A stretch of 64,000 nt of DNA from Escherichia phage AV122. Position 1 is the stretch's first letter. Every line of letters starts with the position of its first letter. Shown one piece after another: positions 1-64,000 of the stretch. The translations under genes were made by a program, and so were the position numbers. The stretch is taken from the sequence record OR352952.1; one strand, given 5' to 3'. The notes beneath the pieces were generated by a model. That model was not told the origin of the DNA, ran no database searches, and saw only the letters and a list, made by a program, of their open reading frames with translations.

Positions 1-2314
<2,314 letters not shown>

Positions 2315-2342
2315 TATTAAAGCATATTAAAGAGGATTAAAA

Positions 2343-4322
2343 ATGACTTTATTATCTCCGGGCATTGAGCTCAAAGAAACTACGGTTCAAAGCACCGTGG
2401 TTAATAACTCTACTGGTACAGCAGCTTTGGCCGGTAAATTCCAGTGGGGTCCTGCTTTTCAGATTAAACAGGTTACAAATGAAGTAGATTTAGTTAATAC
2501 TTTTGGTCAACCAACCGCTGAAACTGCTGACTATTTTATGTCTGCGATGAATTTCTTGCAGTACGGAAATGACTTACGAGTAGTTCGTGCTGTTGATAGA
2601 GATACCGCTAAAAACTCATCACCAATTGCTGGTAATATTGAATACACAATTTCTACCCCAGGTAGTAACTACGCGGTTGGAGATAAAATCACGGTCAAAT
2701 ATGTTTCAGACGATATTGAAACTGAAGGTAAAATTACTGAAGTAGACGCAGATGGAAAAATTAAGAAAATTAATATTCCTACTGCAAAAATTATCGCTAA
2801 AGCAAAAGAAGTCGGTGAATATCCAACATTAGGTTCTAACTGGACTGCGGAAATTTCTTCATCTTCCTCTGGTTTAGCTGCAGTAATAACTCTTGGAAAA
2901 ATTATTACTGATTCTGGTATTTTATTAGCTGAAATTGAAAATGCTGAAGCTGCTATGACAGCGGTTGACTTTCAAGCAAATCTTAAAAAATACGGAATTC
3001 CAGGAGTAGTAGCTCTTTATCCAGGCGAATTAGGCGATAAAATTGAAATTGAAATCGTATCTAAAGCTGACTACGCAAAAGGGGCTTCTGCATTACTCCC
3101 AATTTATCCAGGTGGTGGTACTCGCGCATCTACTGCTAAAGCAGTGTTTGGGTATGGACCGCAAACTGATTCACAGTACGCTATTATAGTTCGTCGTAAT
3201 GATGCTATTGTTCAAAGTGTTGTTCTTTCAACTAAGCGTGGTGAAAAAGATATTTACGATAGTAACATCTATATCGATGACTTTTTCGCAAAAGGCGGCT
3301 CAGAATATATTTTTGCAACTGCACAAAACTGGCCAGAAGGCTTCTCTGGAATTTTAACTCTGTCTGGTGGATTATCATCAAATGCTGAAGTAACAGCAGG
3401 AGATTTGATGGAAGCTTGGGACTTCTTTGCTGACCGTGAATCCGTTGATGTTCAATTGTTTATTGCGGGTTCTTGTGCCGGTGAATCTTTAGAAACAGCA
3501 TCTACTGTCCAAAAACACGTCGTTTCAATTGGGGATGCTCGCCAAGATTGCTTAGTATTGTGCTCACCACCGCGTGAAACTGTAGTTGGAATTCCTGTAA
3601 CTCGTGCAGTAGATAATTTAGTTAACTGGAGAACTGCAGCAGGTTCATACACTGATAATAACTTTAATATCAGTTCAACCTATGCAGCAATCGACGGCAA
3701 CTACAAATATCAGTATGACAAATATAATGATGTGAATCGTTGGGTTCCATTAGCAGCTGATATTGCTGGTTTATGCGCAAGAACTGATAACGTATCTCAG
3801 ACTTGGATGTCTCCAGCTGGTTATAATCGTGGCCAGATTCTTAACGTTATTAAACTTGCTATTGAAACTCGCCAGGCTCAGCGCGACCGTTTATACCAAG
3901 AAGCTATCAACCCGGTAACTGGTACAGGTGGTGATGGTTACGTATTGTACGGTGATAAAACAGCTACTTCTGTTCCTTCTCCGTTTGATCGTATTAACGT
4001 TCGTCGTCTGTTTAATATGTTGAAAACGAATATCGGACGTAGTTCAAAATATCGTTTGTTCGAATTAAACAACGCGTTTACTCGTTCATCATTCCGCACA
4101 GAAACTGCCCAGTACTTACAGGGAATTAAAGCTCTCGGTGGAATTTATGAATATCGTGTAGTTTGCGATACAACAAATAATACTCCGTCAGTAATTGATA
4201 GAAATGAGTTTGTTGCAACATTCTACATCCAACCGGCGCGCAGTATAAATTATATTACTTTGAATTTCGTCGCAACTGCTACTGGTGCAGATTTCGATGA
4301 GTTAACTGGTCTTGCAGGTTAA
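2343..4322 (+). CDS. 18: contractile tail sheath protein gp18
   Basis: 659 aa as T4 gp18; TATAAATA and SD AGAGGA upstream. Confidence 0.95.
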   Translation: MTLLSPGIELKETTVQSTVVNNSTGTAALAGKFQWGPAFQIKQVTNEVDLVNTFGQPTAETADYFMSAMNFLQYGNDLRVVRAVDRDTAKNSSPIAGNIEYTISTPGSNYAVGDKITVKYVSDDIETEGKITEVDADGKIKKINIPTAKIIAKAKEVGEYPTLGSNWTAEISSSSSGLAAVITLGKIITDSGILLAEIENAEAAMTAVDFQANLKKYGIPGVVALYPGELGDKIEIEIVSKADYAKGASALLPIYPGGGTRASTAKAVFGYGPQTDSQYAIIVRRNDAIVQSVVLSTKRGEKDIYDSNIYIDDFFAKGGSEYIFATAQNWPEGFSGILTLSGGLSSNAEVTAGDLMEAWDFFADRESVDVQLFIAGSCAGESLETASTVQKHVVSIGDARQDCLVLCSPPRETVVGIPVTRAVDNLVNWRTAAGSYTDNNFNISSTYAAIDGNYKYQYDKYNDVNRWVPLAADIAGLCARTDNVSQTWMSPAGYNRGQILNVIKLAIETRQAQRDRLYQEAINPVTGTGGDGYVLYGDKTATSVPSPFDRINVRRLFNMLKTNIGRSSKYRLFELNNAFTRSSFRTETAQYLQGIKALGGIYEYRVVCDTTNNTPSVIDRNEFVATFYIQPARSINYITLNFVATATGADFDELTGLAG

Positions 4323-54575: not shown

Positions 54576-57500
54576 ATGGCCGAGATTAAAAGAAAGTTCA
54601 GAGCAGAAGACGGTCTGGACGCAGGTGGTGATAAAATAATCAACGTAGCTTTAGCTGATCGTACCGTAGGAACTGACGGTGTTAACGTTGATTACTTAAT
54701 TCAAGAAAACACAGTTCAACAATACGATCCAACTCGTGGATATTTAAAAGATTTTGTAATCATTTATGATAACCGCTTTTGGGCTGCTATAAATGATATT
54801 CCAAAACCGGCAGGAGCTTTTAATAGCGGACGCTGGAGAGCATTACGTACCGATGCTAACTGGATTACGGTTTCATCTGGTTCATATCAATTAAAATCTG
54901 GTGAAGCTATTTCAGTTAACACCGCAGCTGGTAATGATATTACATTTACTTTACCATCTACCCCAATTGATGGTGATACTATCGTTCTCCAAGATATTGG
55001 AGGAAAACCTGGAGTTAACCAAGTTTTAATTGTAGCTCCAGTGCAAAGTATTGTAAACTTTAGAGGTGAACAGGTACGTTCAGTACTAATGACTCATCCA
55101 AAGTCACAGCTAGTTTTAATTTTTAGTAATCGTCTGTGGCAAATGTATGTTGCTGATTATAGTAGAGAAGCTATAGTTGTAACACCAGCGAATACTTATC
55201 AAGCGCAATCCAACGATTTTATCGTGCGTAGATTTACTTCTGCCGCACCGATAAATATTAAACTTCCAAGATTTGCTAATCATGGAGATATTATTAATTT
55301 CGTCGATTTAGATAAACTAAATCCACTTTATCATACAATTGTTACTACATACGATGAAACGACTTCAGTACAAGAAGTTGGAACTCATTCCATTGAAGGC
55401 CGTACATCGATTGACGGTTTCTTGATGTTTGATGATAATGAGAAATTGTGGAGACTGTTTGACGGGGATAGTAAAGCGCGTTTACGTATCATAACGACTA
55501 ATTCAAACATTCGTCCAAATGAAGAAGTTATGGTATTTGGTGCGAATAACGGAACAACTCAGACAATTGAGCTTCAGCTTCCGACTGATATTTCTGTTGG
55601 TGATACTGTTAAAATTTCCATGAATTACATGAGAAAAGGACAAACAGTTAAAATCAAAGCTGCCGGTGAAGATAAAATTGCTTCTTCAGTTCAATTGCTG
55701 CAATTCCCAAAACGCTCAGAATATCCACCTGAAGCTGAATGGGTTACAGTTCAAGAATTAGTTTTTAACGGTGAAACTAATTATGTTCCAGTTTTACAAC
55801 TTGCTTATATAGAAGATTCTGATGGAAAATACTGGGTTGTACAGCAAAACGTTCCAACTGTAGAAAGAGTTGATTCTTTAAATGATTCTACTAGAGCAAG
55901 ATTAGGCGTAATTGCTTTAGCTACACAAGCTCAAGCTAATGTCGATTTAGAAAATTCTCCACAAAAAGAATTAGCAATTACTCCAGAAACATTAGCTAAT
56001 CGTACTGCTACTGAAACTCGTAGAGGTATCGCAAGAATAGCAACTACTGCTCAAGTAAATCAGAACACCACATTCTCTTTTGCAGATGACCTTATCATTA
56101 CTCCTAAAAAGCTGAATGAAAGAACTGCTACAGAAACTCGTAGAGGTGTTGCTGAAATTGCTACGCAGCAAGAAACTAATACAGGTACTGATGATACTAC
56201 AATCATCACTCCTAAAAAGCTTCAAGCTCGCCAAGGTTCTGAATCATTATCTGGTATTGTAACTTTTGTATCTACTGCAGGTGCTACTCCAGCTTCTAGC
56301 CGTGAATTAAATGGTACGAATGTTTATAATAAAAACACTAATAATTTAGTTGTTTCACCTAAAGCTTTGGATCAGTATAAAGCTACTCCAACGCAGCAAG
56401 GTGCAGTAATTTTAGCAGTTGAAAGTGAAGTAATTGCTGGACAAAGTCAGGAAGGATGGGCAAATGCTGTTGTAACGCCAGAAACGTTACATAAAAAGAC
56501 ATCAACCGATGGAAGAATTGGTTTAATTGAAATTGCTACGCAAAGTGAAGTTAATACAGGAACTGATTATACTCGTGCAGTCACTCCTAAAACTTTAAAT
56601 GACCGTAGAGCAACTGAAAGTTTAAGTGGTATAGCTGAAATTGCTACACAAGTTGAATTCGACGCAGGCGTCGACGATACTCGTATCTCTACACCATTAA
56701 AAATTAAAACCAGATTTAATAGTACTGATCGTACTTCTGTTGTTGCTCTATCTGGATTAGTTGAATCAGGAACTCTCTGGGACCATTATACCCTTAATAT
56801 TCTTGAAGCAAATGAGACGCAACGTGGTACACTTCGTGTAGCTACACAGGTTGAAGCTGCTGCAGGAACATTAGATAATGTTTTAATAACTCCTAAAAAG
56901 CTTTTAGGTACTAAATCTACCGAATCGCAAGAAGGTGTTATTAAAGTTGCAACTCAGTCTGAAACTGTGACTGGAACGTCAGCAAATACTGCTGTATCTC
57001 CAAAAAATTTAAAATGGATTGTGCAGAGTGAATCTACTTGGGCAGCTACTACTGCAATAAGAGGTTTTGTTAAAACTTCATCTGGTTCAATTACATTCGT
57101 TGGTAATGATACAGTCGGTTCTACTCAAGATTTAGAACTGTATGAGAAAAATAGCTATGCGGTATCACCATATGAATTAAACCGTGTATTAGCAAATTAT
57201 TTACCGTTAAAAGCAAAAGCTGCTGATACAAATTTATTGGATGGTCTAGATTCATCTCAGTTCATTCGTAGGGATATTGCACAGACGGTTAATGGTTCAC
57301 TAACCTTAACCCAACAAACGAATCTGAGTGCCCCTCTTGTATCATCTAGTACTGCTACGTTTGGTGGTTCAGTTTCGGCAAATAGTACATTAACTATTTC
57401 TAATACTGGAACTGCAACTCGTCTGATTTTTGAGAAAGGACCTCAAACTGGAACTAACCCAGCACAGACGATGACTATTAGAGTTTGGGGAAATCAGTTT

Positions 57501-58445
57501 GGCGGCGGTTCAGATACAACACGTTCTACTGTATTTGAAGTTGGTGATGAAACGTCTAATCACTTTTATTCTCAACGTAATAAAGCTGGGAATATAACGT
57601 TTAGTATCAATGGTACTGTAATGCCAATAAACATTAATGCTTCCGGTTTGATGAATGTTAATGGCGTTGCAACATTTGGTCGTTCAGTCACAGCCAATGG
57701 TGAATTCATTAGCAAGTCTGCAAATGCTTTCAGAGCAATTAGCGGTGATTACGGATTCTTTATTCGTAATGATGCTGCTAATACCTATTTTATGCTTACT
57801 GCATCCGGTGATCAGACTGGCGGATTTAATGGATTACGTCCTTTAGCTATTAATAATGCATCTGGCCAAGTAACGATTGGTGAAAGCTTAATCATTGCCA
57901 AAGGTGCTACTATAAATTCAGGTGGTTTAACTGTTAACTCGAGAATTCGTTCTCAGGGTACTAAAGCATCTGATTTATATACCCGTGCTCCAACATCTGA
58001 TACTGTAGGATTCTGGTCAATTGATATTAACGATTCAGCCACTTATAACCAGTTCCCGGGTTATTTTAAAATGGTTGAAAAAACTAATGAAGTGACTGGA
58101 CTTCCGTACTTAGAACGTGGCGAAGAAGTTAAATCTCCTGGTACACTGACACAGTTTGGTAACACACTTGATTCGCTTTACCAAGATTGGATTACTTATC
58201 CAACGACACCAGAAGCGCGTACCACTCGCTGGACACGTACATGGCAGAAAACCAAAAACTCTTGGTCAAGTTTTGTTCAGGTATTTGATGGAGGTAACCC
58301 TCCTCAGCCGTCTGATATCGGTGCTTTGCCATCTGATAATGCTACAATGGGGAATCTTACTATTCGTGATTTCTTACGAATTGGTAATGTTCGCATTATT
58401 CCTGACCCAGTGAATAAATCTGTTAAATTTGAATGGATTGAATAA
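54576..58445 (+). CDS. 34: long tail fibre proximal subunit gp34
   Basis: 1289 aa as T4 gp34; late promoter upstream. Confidence 0.95.
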   Translation: MAEIKRKFRAEDGLDAGGDKIINVALADRTVGTDGVNVDYLIQENTVQQYDPTRGYLKDFVIIYDNRFWAAINDIPKPAGAFNSGRWRALRTDANWITVSSGSYQLKSGEAISVNTAAGNDITFTLPSTPIDGDTIVLQDIGGKPGVNQVLIVAPVQSIVNFRGEQVRSVLMTHPKSQLVLIFSNRLWQMYVADYSREAIVVTPANTYQAQSNDFIVRRFTSAAPINIKLPRFANHGDIINFVDLDKLNPLYHTIVTTYDETTSVQEVGTHSIEGRTSIDGFLMFDDNEKLWRLFDGDSKARLRIITTNSNIRPNEEVMVFGANNGTTQTIELQLPTDISVGDTVKISMNYMRKGQTVKIKAAGEDKIASSVQLLQFPKRSEYPPEAEWVTVQELVFNGETNYVPVLQLAYIEDSDGKYWVVQQNVPTVERVDSLNDSTRARLGVIALATQAQANVDLENSPQKELAITPETLANRTATETRRGIARIATTAQVNQNTTFSFADDLIITPKKLNERTATETRRGVAEIATQQETNTGTDDTTIITPKKLQARQGSESLSGIVTFVSTAGATPASSRELNGTNVYNKNTNNLVVSPKALDQYKATPTQQGAVILAVESEVIAGQSQEGWANAVVTPETLHKKTSTDGRIGLIEIATQSEVNTGTDYTRAVTPKTLNDRRATESLSGIAEIATQVEFDAGVDDTRISTPLKIKTRFNSTDRTSVVALSGLVESGTLWDHYTLNILEANETQRGTLRVATQVEAAAGTLDNVLITPKKLLGTKSTESQEGVIKVATQSETVTGTSANTAVSPKNLKWIVQSESTWAATTAIRGFVKTSSGSITFVGNDTVGSTQDLELYEKNSYAVSPYELNRVLANYLPLKAKAADTNLLDGLDSSQFIRRDIAQTVNGSLTLTQQTNLSAPLVSSSTATFGGSVSANSTLTISNTGTATRLIFEKGPQTGTNPAQTMTIRVWGNQFGGGSDTTRSTVFEVGDETSNHFYSQRNKAGNITFSINGTVMPININASGLMNVNGVATFGRSVTANGEFISKSANAFRAISGDYGFFIRNDAANTYFMLTASGDQTGGFNGLRPLAINNASGQVTIGESLIIAKGATINSGGLTVNSRIRSQGTKASDLYTRAPTSDTVGFWSIDINDSATYNQFPGYFKMVEKTNEVTGLPYLERGEEVKSPGTLTQFGNTLDSLYQDWITYPTTPEARTTRWTRTWQKTKNSWSSFVQVFDGGNPPQPSDIGALPSDNATMGNLTIRDFLRIGNVRIIPDPVNKSVKFEWIE

Positions 58446-58453
58446 GAGGTATT

Positions 58454-59569
58454 ATGGAAAAATTTATGGCAGAGTTTGGACAAGGATATGTCCAAACGCC
58501 ATTTTTATCGGAAAGTAATTCAGTAAGATATAAAATAAGTATAGCGGGTTCTTGCCCGCTTTCTACTGCAGGACCATACGTTAAATTTCAAGATAATCCT
58601 GTTGGAAGTCAAACATTTAGCGCAGGTCTTCATCTAAGAGTTTTTGACCCTTCCACCGGAGCATTAGTTGATAGTAAGTCATATGCTTTTTCTACTTCAA
58701 ATGATACTACATCAGCTGCTTTTGTTAGTTTCATGAATTCTTTGACGAATAATCGAATTGTCGCTATATTAACTAGTGGAAAGGTTAATTTTCCTCCTGA
58801 AGTAGTATCTTGGCTAAGAACTGCAGGAACGTCTGCTTTTCCATCTGATTCTATATTGTCAAGATTCGACGTATCATATGCTGCTTTTTATACTTCTTCT
58901 AAAAGAGCTATCGCATTAGAGCATGTTAAATTAAGTAATAGAAAAAGCACAGATGATTATCAAACTATTTTAGATGTTGTATTTGACAGTTTAGAGGACG
59001 TTGGAGCCACAGGATTTCCTAAAAGAACATACGAAAGCGTTGAGCAATTTATGTCGGCGGTTGGAGGAACTAATAACGAAATTGCACGTCTACCAACTTC
59101 AGCTGCTATAAGTAAACTCTCTGATTATAATTTAATTCCTGGTGACGTTCTTTATCTTAAAGCCCAGTTATATGCCGATGCTGATTTACTTGCGCTTGGA
59201 ACTACAAATATATCTATCCGTTTTTATAATGCATCTAATGGATATATTTCCTCGACACAAGCTGAGTTTACTGGACAGGCTGGGTCTTGGGAATTAAAGG
59301 AAGACTATGTAGTTGTTCCAGAAAATGCAGTTGGATTTACGATATATGCACAAAGAACTGCTCAAGCTGGACAAGGCGGTATGCGAAATTTAAGCTTTTC
59401 TGAAGTATCAAGAAACGGCGGCATTTCAAAACCTGCTGAATTTGGTGTCAATGGTATTCGTGTTAATTATATCTGTGAATCTGCTTCACCTCCGGATATA
59501 ATGGTACTTCCTACGCAAGCATCGTCTAAAACTGGTAAAGTGTTTGGGCAAGAATTTAGAGAAGTATAA
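58454..59569 (+). CDS. 35: long tail fibre hinge connector gp35
   Basis: 371 aa; synteny. Confidence 0.9.
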   Translation: MEKFMAEFGQGYVQTPFLSESNSVRYKISIAGSCPLSTAGPYVKFQDNPVGSQTFSAGLHLRVFDPSTGALVDSKSYAFSTSNDTTSAAFVSFMNSLTNNRIVAILTSGKVNFPPEVVSWLRTAGTSAFPSDSILSRFDVSYAAFYTSSKRAIALEHVKLSNRKSTDDYQTILDVVFDSLEDVGATGFPKRTYESVEQFMSAVGGTNNEIARLPTSAAISKLSDYNLIPGDVLYLKAQLYADADLLALGTTNISIRFYNASNGYISSTQAEFTGQAGSWELKEDYVVVPENAVGFTIYAQRTAQAGQGGMRNLSFSEVSRNGGISKPAEFGVNGIRVNYICESASPPDIMVLPTQASSKTGKVFGQEFREV

Positions 59570-59631: not shown

Positions 59632-60297
59632 ATGGCTGATTTAAAAGTAGGTTCAACAACCGGAGGCTCTGTCATTTGGCATCAAGGAAATTTTCCATTG
59701 AATCCAGCCGGTGACGATGTACTCTATAAATCATTTAAAATATATTCAGAATATAATAAACCACAGGCAGCTGATAACGATTTCGTTTCTAAAGCTAATG
59801 GTGGTACTTATGCATCAAAGGTAACATTTAACGGCGGCGTCCAAGTCCCGTATGCTGTAAACAACACAAACCCATGCGGTATTTATCCAGGTAACGGTGA
59901 TAATGCTACTTTTGCTGTAGCAAATATTGATATTGTTTCGTGGAATGGTATTGGTTTTAAATCATCGCAAGGTTCAGCAGCCCGAACTGTTGTAATTAAT
60001 GCACGTAATGGTGATATTAATACAAAAGGTGTTGTGTCTGCGGCAGGTCAAGTAAGAAGTGATGCAGCTGCTCCTATAGCAGCGAACGACCTTACTAGAA
60101 AGGACTATGTTGATGGAGCAATAAATACTGTTACAGCAAATGCGAACTCTAGAGTGTTGCGTTCTGGCGACACTATGATAGGTAATTTAACCGCGCCAAA
60201 CTTTTTCTCACAGAATCCTGCGTCTCAACCTTCACATGTTCCACGATTTGACCAAATCGTAATTAAGGATTCTGTTCAAGATTTCGGCTATTATTAA
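59632..60297 (+). CDS. 36: long tail fibre distal connector gp36
   Basis: 221 aa; late promoter and terminator hairpin upstream. Confidence 0.9.
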
Positions 60298-60305
60298 GAG
60301 GACTT

Positions 60306-63300
60306 ATGGCTACTTTAAAACAAATACAATTTAAAAGAAGCAAAACTGCAGGTCAACGTCCTGCTGCTTCAGTATTAGCCGAAGGTGAATTGGCTATAAA
60401 CTTAAAAGACCGTACTCTTTTTACTAAAGATGACTCGGGAAATATTATTGATTTAAGCATTACCGCTGGCGGTAATATTAGTGGAAATATCACTCAAACT
60501 GGCGATTATACACAGACTGGAAAATTTAATTTAATTGGTCCGCAAATTGTAGCAAGCGGTGGATATATTGAGTTTAATTATCGTACTACTGGAAGTGGGG
60601 CTTGGTCCGGTCAACACACTGCAAAAGCTCCAATTTTTGTAGATTTAAGCTCAGCTACTTCCACATCTGAATATAATCCTATAATTAAACAGCGCTTTAA
60701 AGATGGTACTTTTTCATTAGGTACTTTAGTTTCTGAAGGTTCGTTGAAGATTCATTATATCAATGAATCTGGCGATTCGAAATATTGGACGTTTCGACGT
60801 GACGGCGGATTTACTGTTGACGGTGGAGGTTTAGCAGTATCAGGAGGTAGTATAACTACAACCGGAAATATTGCAGCTCTCGGAAATATTACTTCGCCTC
60901 AGATTAATACTAAAAATATTATTTTAGATACAAAAGCATTTGGACAATACGACAGTCAGTCTTTAGTTAATTACGTATACCCGGGCACCGGTGAAGAAAA
61001 TGGTATAAACTATCTTCGTAAAGTTCGGTCTAAATCAGGTGGAACTATTTACCATGAAATTTGTACAGCTCAGACTGGGCTAGCTGATGAAGTTTCTTGG
61101 TGGACTGGTAATACACCGTTATTTAAACTATACGGTATTCGTAACGACGGTAGAATGATTATTCGCAATAGCTTGGCCATCGGGACCGTGACTGAAGGAT
61201 ACCCGTCAAGCGATTATGGAAATACCGGGGTAATGGGAGATAGGTATTTAGCTATTGGCGATAATGCTTCTGGACTTAAATGGGTTCGTACTGGCGTTTA
61301 TGACCTGATGGCTAATGGTATTTCATCTGCTACCATTTTGAACAACGGTATTAACAGCACCAAGAAATTGATGGTTGGTTATAGTCGAGATTCCGGTTCT
61401 ACTTGGGATTTTCCAAATAACAACCAGGCAATGTTTACTGCGCGTACCGATGTTGATGGTAATAATAACGGTGATGGGCAAACTCATATCGGTTATAACA
61501 GTAATTCTAAAATGTATCACTATTTCCGTGGTGCAGGTCGTATGTCCGTTAGTATGGGCGATGGACTTCTTGTTGAGCCGGGTATTTTAGACATTAAAAC
61601 TGGGTCTAATAGAGTTGCTATTAGAGCAGATGGTACATTTGACTCAACCCAACGTATTTCTATGCGTACGGGCTTGTTTTTAAATGGTGATGATAATACT
61701 AATGCTTTATCGTTTAAAGCTCCTACCGGTGTTGACGGAACCAAAACCATTAACTGGGATGCAGGCACTCGTAACGGACAGAATAAAAATACTGTTTCAA
61801 TTAAAGCATGGGGTAATGCCTTTAACTCAGTTCCCGGTATTAGAGAAACTGTATTTGAAGTATATGATTCACAAGGTTATTATTTTTATTCACAACGCCA
61901 GCGCCCAGAAGGTTCTGAAACTGTTGGGCCCGTTGTAACCCAGTTCAATGGACCAGTTAATGCTAACGGCTCTATTAGCACTGCAGGAAATCTTAAAGTT
62001 GATGGTTTAAGCACTTTAAACGGTAATGTTACAATGAAGAACGGCTTGTTTGTCCAAGGTGGTTCTTCTATTACTGGGCAAGTTAAAATCGGCGGAACAA
62101 CAAATGCATTAAGAATTTGGAATGCCGAATATGGCGCTATTTTCCGTCGTTCAGAAAGTAACTTTTATATTATTCCAACCAATAAAAATGAAGGCGAAAG
62201 TGGAGACATTCACAGCTCTTTAAGACCTGTGAGAATAGGATTAAACGATGGCATGGTTGGGTTAGGAAGAGATTCTTTTATAGTAGATCAAAATAATGCT
62301 TTAACTACTATAAACAGTAACTCTCGCATTAATGCCAACTTTAGAATGCAATTAGGACAAAATGCTTATATAGATATTGAGGCTTCTGATGGAGTTCGCC
62401 CAACAGGTTGTGGTTCCTTTGCATCTCAGAATGACGTAAACGTCAGAGCTCCAATTTATATGAATATAGAGCGTACTGCTACTTCTGAATACATTCCTAT
62501 TGTTAAACAACGGTATGTAAAGGGTGATAGTACTTATTCTATTGGTACCTTGATTTCTCAGGGAGACTTCCGCGTCCATTATCACCAGGGAACTAGCACC
62601 AATGGCGTAGATTTGAGTTGGGAATTCCGTCGCACAGGCGATTTCCGCGCGCCAGGTAAAATTATTGCCGGTGCTGCTACTCTTGGCACGGATGGTAATA
62701 TTACTGGCGGTTCTGGTAACTTTGCTAACTTGAACACAACTATCGAATCATTAAAAACCGATATTGTTTCAAGTTACCCAATCGGTGCTCCTATTCCATG
62801 GCCAACGGATACTCCTCCTGACGGTTACGCTATTATGGAAGGCCAGACCTTTGATAAGTCTGCATACCCAAAATTGGCTATGGCTTACCCATCTGGCGTA
62901 ATTCCAGATATGCGCGGGCAAACTATCAAGGGTAAACCAAGTGGTCGTGATGTATTAAGTGCAGAAGCTGATGGTATTAAGGCTCATAGCCATAGTGCAT
63001 CGGCTTCAAGTACTGACTTAGGTACTAAAACCACGTCAAGTTTTGATTATGGTACTAAAACATCTTCAAGTTTTGATTATGGTACGAAGAACACTAATAG
63101 TACTGGTGGTCATACTCACTCTGTAAGTGGTACAACAAGTGCTGCTGGTGAGCATGCTCACCACTTAGGTCTGTTATTAGTTAACGGTGGTGATGCTTTG
63201 TACGGGTATACAACCGTTGGTAACAGCCTCCCTAGAACACTTGACTGGCTTGACAGAAGAGACAATAAATTCCCCAACACTAACACAACTGGTAACCATA

Positions 63301-63509
63301 CACATACATGGTCTGGCACTACAAGCAATGCTGGTGCTCATACACATACTGTAGGTATTGGTGCTCATACACATACTGTAGGTATTGGTGCTCATACTCA
63401 CTCGGTAGCAATTGGTTCGCATGGTCATACTATCACTGTAAATAGTACAGGTAATACAGAAAACACGGTTAAAAACATTGCTTTTAACTATATCGTTCGT
63501 TTAGCATAA
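60306..63509 (+). CDS. 37: long tail fibre distal subunit gp37 (receptor-binding tip, His-box needle)
   Basis: 1067 aa; C-terminal HxH repeats; T4-type gp38 follows. Confidence 0.9.
63021..63080 (+). repeat. in-frame tandem 30-nt repeat in gene 37 ([10 protein letters not shown] / [10 protein letters not shown])
   Basis: Two adjacent 30-nt units with 27/30 identity, degenerate third unit follows. Confidence 0.8.
63333..63386 (+). repeat. in-frame perfect tandem 27-nt repeat in gene 37 (GAHTHTVGI x2)
   Basis: Two identical 27-nt units, followed by degenerate units GAHTHSVAI and GSHGHTITV. Confidence 0.85.
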
Positions 63510-63536
63510 GGAGAGGGGCTTTGGCCCCTTCTAAAT
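63509..63536 (+). promoter_or_regulatory. gene 38 split ribosome-binding site
   Basis: AAGGAGAGGGG followed by GGGGC-UUUG-GCCCC hairpin (63515-63528) then UUCUAAAU-AUG. Confidence 0.6.
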
Positions 63537-64000
63537 ATGAAAATATATCATTATTATTTTGACACTAAAGAATTTTACAAAGAAGAAAATTACAAACCGG
63601 TTAAAGGCCTCGGTCTTCCTGCTCATTCAACAATTAAAAAACCTTTAGAACCTAAAGAAGGATATGCAGTTGTATTTGATGAACGTACTCAGGATTGGAT
63701 TTATGAAGAAGACCATCGCGGAAAACGAGCATGGACTTTTAATAAAGAAGAAATTTTTATAAGTGAAATTGGAAGCCCGGTTGGTATAACTTTTGATGAG
63801 CCTGGCGAATTTGATATATGGACTGATGACGGTTGGAAAGAAGACGAAACATATAAGCGAGTTTTAATTCGTAATAGAAAAATTGAAGAATTATATAAAG
63901 AGTTCCAAGTTTTAAATAATATGATTGAAGCTTCTGTCGCCAATAAAAAGGAAAAATTTTATTATAAAAACCTTAAGCGGTTCTTTGCTCTTTTAGAAAA
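63537..64000 (+). CDS. 38: gp38 tail-fibre assembly chaperone (T4 type), 3-prime partial at window end
   Basis: MKIYHYYFDTKEFYKEENYKPVKG... recognised as T4 gp38; runs off the window. Confidence 0.85.
   Translation, partial: MKIYHYYFDTKEFYKEENYKPVKGLGLPAHSTIKKPLEPKEGYAVVFDERTQDWIYEEDHRGKRAWTFNKEEIFISEIGSPVGITFDEPGEFDIWTDDGWKEDETYKRVLIRNRKIEELYKEFQVLNNMIEASVANKKEKFYYKNLKRFFALLE

Follow-up and report, generated by a model that had tools for sequence, protein, structure and literature searches.

A T4-type long-tail-fibre tip in Escherichia phage AV122 with one more HxH motif than T4 and an unrelated head sequence

T4-type long-tail-fibre tips set which bacteria a phage attacks, and they are a main target in therapeutic phage engineering. 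A tip of this type is an intertwined homotrimer of gp37 with octahedral Fe(II) sites, and in T4 gp57A also takes part in the folding of the gp37 chains. In the T2/T6/S16 type, gp38 carries glycine-rich motifs and hypervariable segments, and gp37 ends in an S16-like domain. The structure of the T4 tip is reportedly the work of Bartual et al. in 2010, while Tetart et al. in 1996 are said, going by the title of their paper, to have linked duplications in the T4 gp37 tip to an expansion of host range.

Natural variation around the T4 tip has been described in several phage groups. Between seven and nine HxH motifs were reported in the gp37 of KAW1E185, R5505 and further phages (Korf et al. 2019), and a T4-like needle tip has been published on the fibres of the genus Felixounavirus, where the fold was described for Bas63 and needle length was found to go with HxH number (Sci Adv 2025). 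Magaziner and Salmond 2022 include the tip of Shigella phage SHBML-50-1, which forms part of a commercial Shigella phage cocktail, in their alignment of the T4/lambda tip family. Escherichia phage AV122 (OR352952), a Tequatrovirus isolated from wastewater, was described by Vitt et al. 2024 (PMC10844046), who assigned its gp38 to the chaperone type and found its gp37 to depart from that of T4 chiefly in the head, at T4 residues 918-973. Its nearest whole-genome relative is R5505, of the KAW1E185 group.

Here, we examine the gp37 tip of AV122 in a window of 64,000 nt, the term denoting the whole stretch of DNA that was analysed. The divergent head, the chaperone-type gp38 and the LPS dependence of AV122 are already in print, the tip allele is already in GenBank by way of SHBML-50-1, and what AV122, a published phage, shows here is natural variation of an ordinary and previously described kind. 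Taken as a whole, the explanation that we consider very probable is a tip of T4 type with one extra layer, made of a 10-aa and a 9-aa unit (a 10/9 layer), and a recombined head that likely recognises the LPS outer core. A sequence-only reading of the same DNA is confirmed in what it observed and proves partly right in how it interpreted the observation, and one of the checks it put forward has already been published for AV122.

Anatomy of the AV122 tip

The gp37 encoded in the window matches WPK37121.1 ('tail fiber [Escherichia phage AV122]') exactly, and its open reading frame bears out the length first noted, 1067 aa against 1026 aa in T4. Upstream lie gp34 (54576-58445), gp35 (58454-59569) and gp36 (59632-60297), in the gp34-35-36-37-38 order of T4, and the features studied here are confined to the last 520 nt of the gene 37 frame. 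They are listed below with gene 37, its collar domain and the downstream sequence, all on the plus strand, with the basis for each in brackets.

60306..63509, plus strand: gene 37, distal long-tail-fibre subunit (3204-nt ORF, 1067 aa)
62784..62927, plus strand: collar domain, aa 827-874, which the needle leaves and later rejoins (Pfam PF07484 Collar, E = 2.3e-11; 2XGF alignment)
62985..62993, plus strand: first HxH motif, H894/H896, on the ascending strand and adjoining the collar (HxH spacing)
63021..63110, plus strand: three 10-aa GTK units on the ascending strand, the extra one relative to T4 being 63051-63080 (tandem repeats, 2XGF alignment)
63105..63164, plus strand: ascending 14-aa module with two HxH motifs, 14 aa and then GEHAHH (HxH spacing)
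63165..63290, plus strand: head segment of 42 aa, the putative receptor contact, unrelated to the T4 head (alignment, homologue searches)
63291..63332, plus strand: descending 14-aa module with HxH (HxH spacing)
63333..63440, plus strand: four 9-aa HxH units on the descending strand, where T4 has three (tandem repeats, 2XGF alignment)
63441..63506, plus strand: C-terminal strand back to the collar, 22 aa, the same as in T4 (alignment)
63515..63528, plus strand: GC-rich hairpin GGGGC-TTTG-GCCCC between the gene 37 stop and gene 38 start codons (RNA fold, -13.8 kcal/mol)
63537..64000, plus strand, cut by the end of the window: gene 38, T4-type tail-fibre assembly chaperone (153/154 identity to T4 gp38)

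The last 267 aa of gp37 match the T4 tip structure, PDB entry 2XGF, with E = 5.1e-101 (phmmer against PDB; 2xgf_A, query 1-267, chain 6-242). The alignment has gaps only at three places, namely a gain of 10 aa at the GTK repeat, a longer and different head, and a gain of 9 aa at the HxH repeat, and these are exactly the sites, two repeats and a head unlike that of T4, to which the differences had been assigned beforehand. AV122 shares with T4 the collar, the six-stranded HxH needle and the identical C-terminal 22 aa, and differs from it in having one more 10/9 layer and an unrelated head sequence. Together with this homology, the collar domain, the HxH motifs on both strands flanking a variable head, and the adjacent gp38-type chaperone identify a tip of the T4 gp37 type. 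The gp38 product is identical to the T4 chaperone at 153 of 154 residues (window 63537-63998), as its description as the T4 chaperone type had anticipated; AV122 does not have the T2/T6/S16-type system, in which gp38 is an adhesin on the gp37 tip, since its gp38 is a T4 chaperone and its gp37 ends in a T4 needle.

Within the needle, the ascending GTK units occupy 63021-63050, 63051-63080 and 63081-63110, where T4 has two, and the descending units read GAHTHTVGI (63333-63359), GAHTHTVGI (63360-63386), GAHTHSVAI (63387-63413) and GSHGHTITV (63414-63440). The HxH motifs fall at H894, H936 and H950 on the ascending strand and at H998, H1012, H1021, H1030 and H1039 on the descending strand, eight in all against seven in T4, so the expected surplus of one is present. 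The head gap between the flanking motifs measures 48 residues, compared with 37 in T4. AlphaFold2, with an alignment of 30 sequences, gave a pLDDT of 56 and a pTM of 0.28 for the 267-aa tip, an obligate intertwined trimer here folded as a monomer, and this model is too poor to be of use.

The collar, needle and head of gp37 would be folded with the help of the T4-type gp38 chaperone. Three gp37 chains would then build a six-stranded needle, each chain running up, forming the head, and running back down. A His6 metal site, presumably occupied by iron, is predicted at every HxH motif, where it would staple the needle together, giving eight sites in AV122 and seven in T4. The head at the end of the needle would be the part that touches the receptor.

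Two further elements of the region deserve mention. The hairpin between genes 37 and 38 is also kept in SHBML-50-1, KAW1E185, N2 and T4. A minus-strand frame at 63177-63428 (83 aa) was considered as a gene and rejected: it lies within a plus-strand gene that has strong support, and it owes its existence to the repeats there.

The two tandem repeats and the paired needle layer

Of the tandem arrays that Tandem Repeats Finder scores across the 64-kb window, the top two are a 27-nt one at 63332-63397 (2.4 copies, 100% matches, score 132) and a 30-nt one at 63006-63093 (2.9 copies, 84% matches, score 109). The 27-nt duplication is perfect, as had been stated, with 63333-63359 equal to 63360-63386 nucleotide for nucleotide; chance cannot account for a perfect tandem copy of this length in 64 kb, the expectation being ~64000 x 4^-27. 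The 30-nt repeat is likewise present, but its description as a unit occurring twice was inexact, the copies differing at 3 of 30 nt (27/30 identical) and in one residue.

The two repeats had been taken for separate events. HxH spacing was parsed in the proteins that two database searches returned, as well as in IMG/VR and GenBank loci, giving a survey set of 208 unique complete needles, the sequences of which are mutually related, so that independent copy-number changes are far fewer than 208. Across this set, the distance from the collar-proximal HxH motif to the next ascending one is 12+10k residues, that is, k GTK units; the descending strand closes with k gaps of 9 residues; and m gaps of 14 residues lie beside the head, in equal number on each strand. 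The range is k = 1 to 6 and m = 0 to 2. T4 has m=1, k=2 and seven HxH motifs, while the needle in the AV122 window has m=1, k=3 and eight, and is balanced, with a collar gap of 42, one 14-aa gap per strand and three 9-aa gaps.

Balance, by which ascending 10-aa units equal descending 9-aa units and the 14-aa units are equal on both strands, is a working rule set up in this analysis, and the parser scores 205 of the 208 unique needles as balanced. One of the others (P0212) is a parser artefact, in which an additional HDH splits a gap of 52, and another (P0219) has a frameshifted C-terminus. The one true exception is the T4-like metagenomic contig L007, IMGVR_UViG_3300030021_000020, in which the ascending units number three and the descending gaps two, a count that may reflect either an unbalanced needle that is tolerated or a repeat that collapsed in assembly. 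Over the 247 needles parsed, the lengths of the ascending and descending strands (Lup, Ldown) correlate at r = 0.997. The AV122 type of needle, with one layer more than T4, accounts for 40 of the 208 unique needles, including those of the backbone relatives KAW1E185 and R5505.

Separate events are contradicted by these counts, in which the copy numbers of the two repeats co-vary in essentially all 208 unique homologous needles. If a 10-aa and a 9-aa unit form one layer that is gained or lost whole, the co-variation of GTK and HxH counts is explained, and as part of the overall explanation given above it is in all likelihood the case that both 'duplications' belong to a single added needle layer, one as its ascending half and the other as its descending half. 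Two published contacts in the T4 tip, G921-F970 and G964-H929 (Islam et al. 2019), suggest that an ascending residue i lies beside a descending residue j at i+j ~1892, which would set the T4 GTK units at 895-914 alongside the HxH units at 978-997; the side-by-side placement of 10-aa and 9-aa units is drawn from these two contacts and from the co-variation, not from coordinates. The 10/9 module would accordingly consist of an ascending 10-aa GTKxxSSFDY unit next to a descending 9-aa GxHxHxVxI unit, and the 14/14 module of one HxH motif from each strand. From 9-10 extended residues and a T4 needle of ~150 Å, we estimate that the extra layer may lengthen the needle by ~2-3 nm.

The literature surveyed, outside which the 2010 paper on the T4 tip structure falls, yielded no statement of the 10/9 pairing rule. 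It may be a design rule of general reach that 10-aa and 9-aa units are strictly paired, which would let needle length be engineered in whole layers, and the admission of matched up and down modules only would be a practical constraint on the design of chimeric fibres.

Shared heads, mosaicism and the history of the repeats

The closest relative of the tip region is found in SHBML-50-1 (gp37, YP_009288611), which, in a megablast search of ~50,000 phage genomes, aligns without gaps to the full 861 nt of window 62700-63560 at 95.2% identity, and which from 63161 to 63560 is identical at 398 of 400 nt, both 27-mers included. The head is the same in the two phages, as is the needle architecture, including the extra GTK unit and both perfect 27-mers, whereas identity drops to 86-93% in the collar and ascending strand, and the shaft differs, the SHBML-50-1 gp37 being 1025 aa long against 1067. 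The collar of AV122 (window 62706-62945) is instead 97% identical to that of KAW1E185. Tequatrovirus KAW1E185 and R5505 (Korf et al. 2019) likewise have three GTK units and eight HxH motifs, but carry a longer and different head, with a gap of 55 residues, and descending units that have diverged (8 and 5 nt mismatches). The stretch at ~63066-63160 is closest to phages sutha and N2, and from 63161 on the match is to SHBML-50-1, a pattern by which the tip within the window reads as a mosaic.

The AV122 head is found on needles of three lengths. Felixounavirus phages Z31 and LTH02 carry it at k=1; sutha (with an intact 1066-aa gp37), BYEP01 and N2 carry it on needles of T4 length, k=2; and AV122 and SHBML-50-1 carry it at k=3. 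The N2 record has a frameshift within the head. With a 58-aa query spanning the head, residues 13-58 were 100% identical in SHBML-50-1, BYEP01 and several Felixounavirus long fibres, and many phages of that genus carry the head on the long tail fibre, for example Z31, LTH02 and ECML-1. At the nucleotide level, window 63064-63367 matches Felixounavirus over 304 nt at 90.5% identity without gaps. The long-fibre tips of Shigella phage Z31 and Escherichia phage LTH02 thus resemble that of AV122 in the head and adjoining needle modules, and differ from it in a shorter needle (6 HxH, collar gap 24) and in collar, C-terminus and fibre shaft; no gp38 homologue was found within 4 kb of the Felixounavirus loci. 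Bas63 is absent from the 35 records matching the AV122 head, and may carry another head.

Because the head occurs on three needle lengths and in two unrelated phage groups, it moves by recombination, apparently with crossovers at the conserved repeat units. That T4-like and FelixO1-like phages have one head module in common, at ~90% nucleotide identity, illustrates how host-range modules travel between unrelated groups.

As to the origin of the repeats, the interpretation first offered was that the 27-mer, and separately the 30-mer, had been freshly duplicated by replication slippage in the lineage of AV122 itself, with a change of host range. The 27-mers of AV122 are the sole neighbouring units with 0 mismatches among ~25 non-redundant alleles with three descending units, the others differing at 4-13 nt, and duplication in the gp37 tip is, by the account of Tetart et al., a published route to a new host range. 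Like AV122, those T4 mutants reportedly have a small unit of the gp37 adhesin region duplicated in tandem and in frame, but they were selected in the laboratory, whereas the extra units of AV122 belong to a widespread natural architecture. The suggestion of a recent event holds to the extent that the pair shared by AV122 and SHBML-50-1 looks the youngest relative to the other alleles sampled; it fails in that SHBML-50-1, isolated and assembled independently, has the same two perfect 27-mers base for base, and the duplication is therefore older than the split of the two phages. The matching 30-mers, with their three differences, look older, and needles that are out of balance are almost never seen (one in ~207), which makes a fresh one-sided duplication unlikely. 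Nor is needle length, given the occurrence of one head at k=1, 2 and 3, obviously a determinant of specificity. Fresh duplication in AV122 is in our judgement improbable, and the simpler history, which we favour, is that a k=3 frame was inherited from a parent like KAW1E185 or R5505, that the head module was then swapped by recombination, and that two neighbouring descending units were homogenised, either by gene conversion or by loss and gain through slippage.

An error of assembly in the repeat copy number, also raised at the outset, would be a more trivial origin. Short perfect tandem repeats can be mis-assembled, and contig L007 has an odd, unbalanced count; yet the perfect stretch of 54 nt is shorter than an ordinary sequencing read, the copy number is the same in the independent genomes of AV122 and SHBML-50-1, balance with the ascending strand requires just this count, and the reading frame stays open through to the T4-identical C-terminus. 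We give the artefact almost no credence. With inheritance of the k=3 frame and later homogenisation as the favoured history, the identical adjacent 27-mers could still act as a slippage hot spot, yielding mixed needle lengths or transiently unbalanced, defective fibres (L007 may be compared), and so a contingency-type tuning of the reach of the head through surface polysaccharide, an idea that we regard as a long shot.

The head and its receptor

AV122 fails to plate on the LPS-core mutants waaC and waaR of ECOR4, from which an LPS core receptor was deduced, with a secondary outer-membrane protein receptor considered possible (Vitt et al. 2024, PMC10844046). The dependence was measured on the whole phage, and T4-type short fibres bind LPS too. 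T4 differs in that it uses OmpC plus LPS, while AV122 depends on the LPS outer core. Read together, the head sequence and this published phenotype make the LPS outer core, and not OmpC, the most likely target of the AV122 head.

The alternative is that the head binds OmpC, the protein that T4 uses on K-12, or another outer-membrane protein, and that the LPS dependence is indirect, acting through the short fibres or through protein display. In T4 itself, OmpC and LPS are both bound by the tip (Islam et al. 2019), which lends this some plausibility. Against it, the waaC and waaR mutants are both resistant to AV122, and the relevant text of Vitt et al. 2024 (PMC10844046), so far as it is drawn on here, gives LPS only for this phage and names no porin as its receptor. 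The head is moreover common to Felixounavirus long fibres, and Bas63 of that genus is LPS-dependent, though perhaps with another head. We consider a protein receptor of this kind unlikely. For any phage with the AV122 head, no receptor assignment at the level of the head was found beyond the whole-phage LPS result for AV122, and for SHBML-50-1 no receptor was found reported in the literature searched.

With recognition of the LPS outer core as the preferred reading, the possibility raised at the start that the tip might turn out identical to that of a well-characterised phage with a known receptor is borne out only in part: it is near-identical to that of the sequenced SHBML-50-1, and the published assay that bears on its receptor is that of AV122 itself, which points to the LPS outer core and not to OmpC. 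The presence of one and the same head on needles with k=1, 2 and 3 makes head identity a likelier determinant of specificity than needle length.

Mosaicism of the shaft and the collar match

The mosaic character of AV122 gp37, the distal subunit of the long tail fibre, extends to its shaft:

Window 60306-62700, + strand: gp37 shaft, mosaic too

In megablast comparisons, separate parts of gene 37 match separate phage records, and the most of the gene covered by any one of them is 83%. Escherichia phage N2 aligns at 87.9% over 83% of the gene, and FJ1 aligns at 93% across the gene's first 2436 nt. Long and short fibres share a common collar fold, and the additional alignment of the collar (window 62784-62927) with the 'short tail fiber' chain of the recently solved PDB entries 9cuy/9mjn (E = 6.5e-9) is consistent with this sharing.

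The AV122 head in other fibres

Fibres carrying the AV122 head segment include the following:

L002, locus positions 550-3752: gp37 homologue with the AV122 head, Escherichia phage N2 (ON645936.1)
L005 and L006, locus positions 1904-4291 and flanks: long fibre with the AV122 head and distal needle, Felixounavirus Z31 and LTH02

The N2 homologue, whose sole annotation in its record is 'similar to tail fiber protein', is frameshifted by a 1-nt deletion in the part that encodes the head, following ...LDWLD; it could be a real pseudogene, or the sequence could be in error. For the Z31 and LTH02 long fibre, tblastn over the 4 kb to each side detected no homologue of gp38 (best E = 4); downstream lie two small unannotated ORFs of 65 and 123 aa.

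An unbalanced needle

Among approximately 207 complete needles, just one is truly unbalanced, that is, with unequal counts of ascending 10-aa and descending 9-aa units. It is found in L007 (IMGVR_UViG_3300030021_000020), in a gp37-like ORF whose end lies close to locus position 1995. Its ascending strand has three GTK units and its descending strand only two gaps of 9 aa, the middle 27-nt unit, of the type found in the related Tequatrovirus KAW1E185, being absent. Either slippage produced a true variant here, or the repeat collapsed during metagenome assembly.

A hairpin between genes 37 and 38

The interval from the gene 37 stop codon to the gene 38 start codon contains a short inverted repeat:

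Window 63515-63528: GC-rich hairpin, GGGGC TTTG GCCCC

With its flanks included, the hairpin has an RNA folding energy of about -13.8 kcal/mol, and it overlaps the GGAG that precedes gene 38. The Shigella phage SHBML-50-1, KAW1E185, N2 and T4 all keep it, with minor differences.
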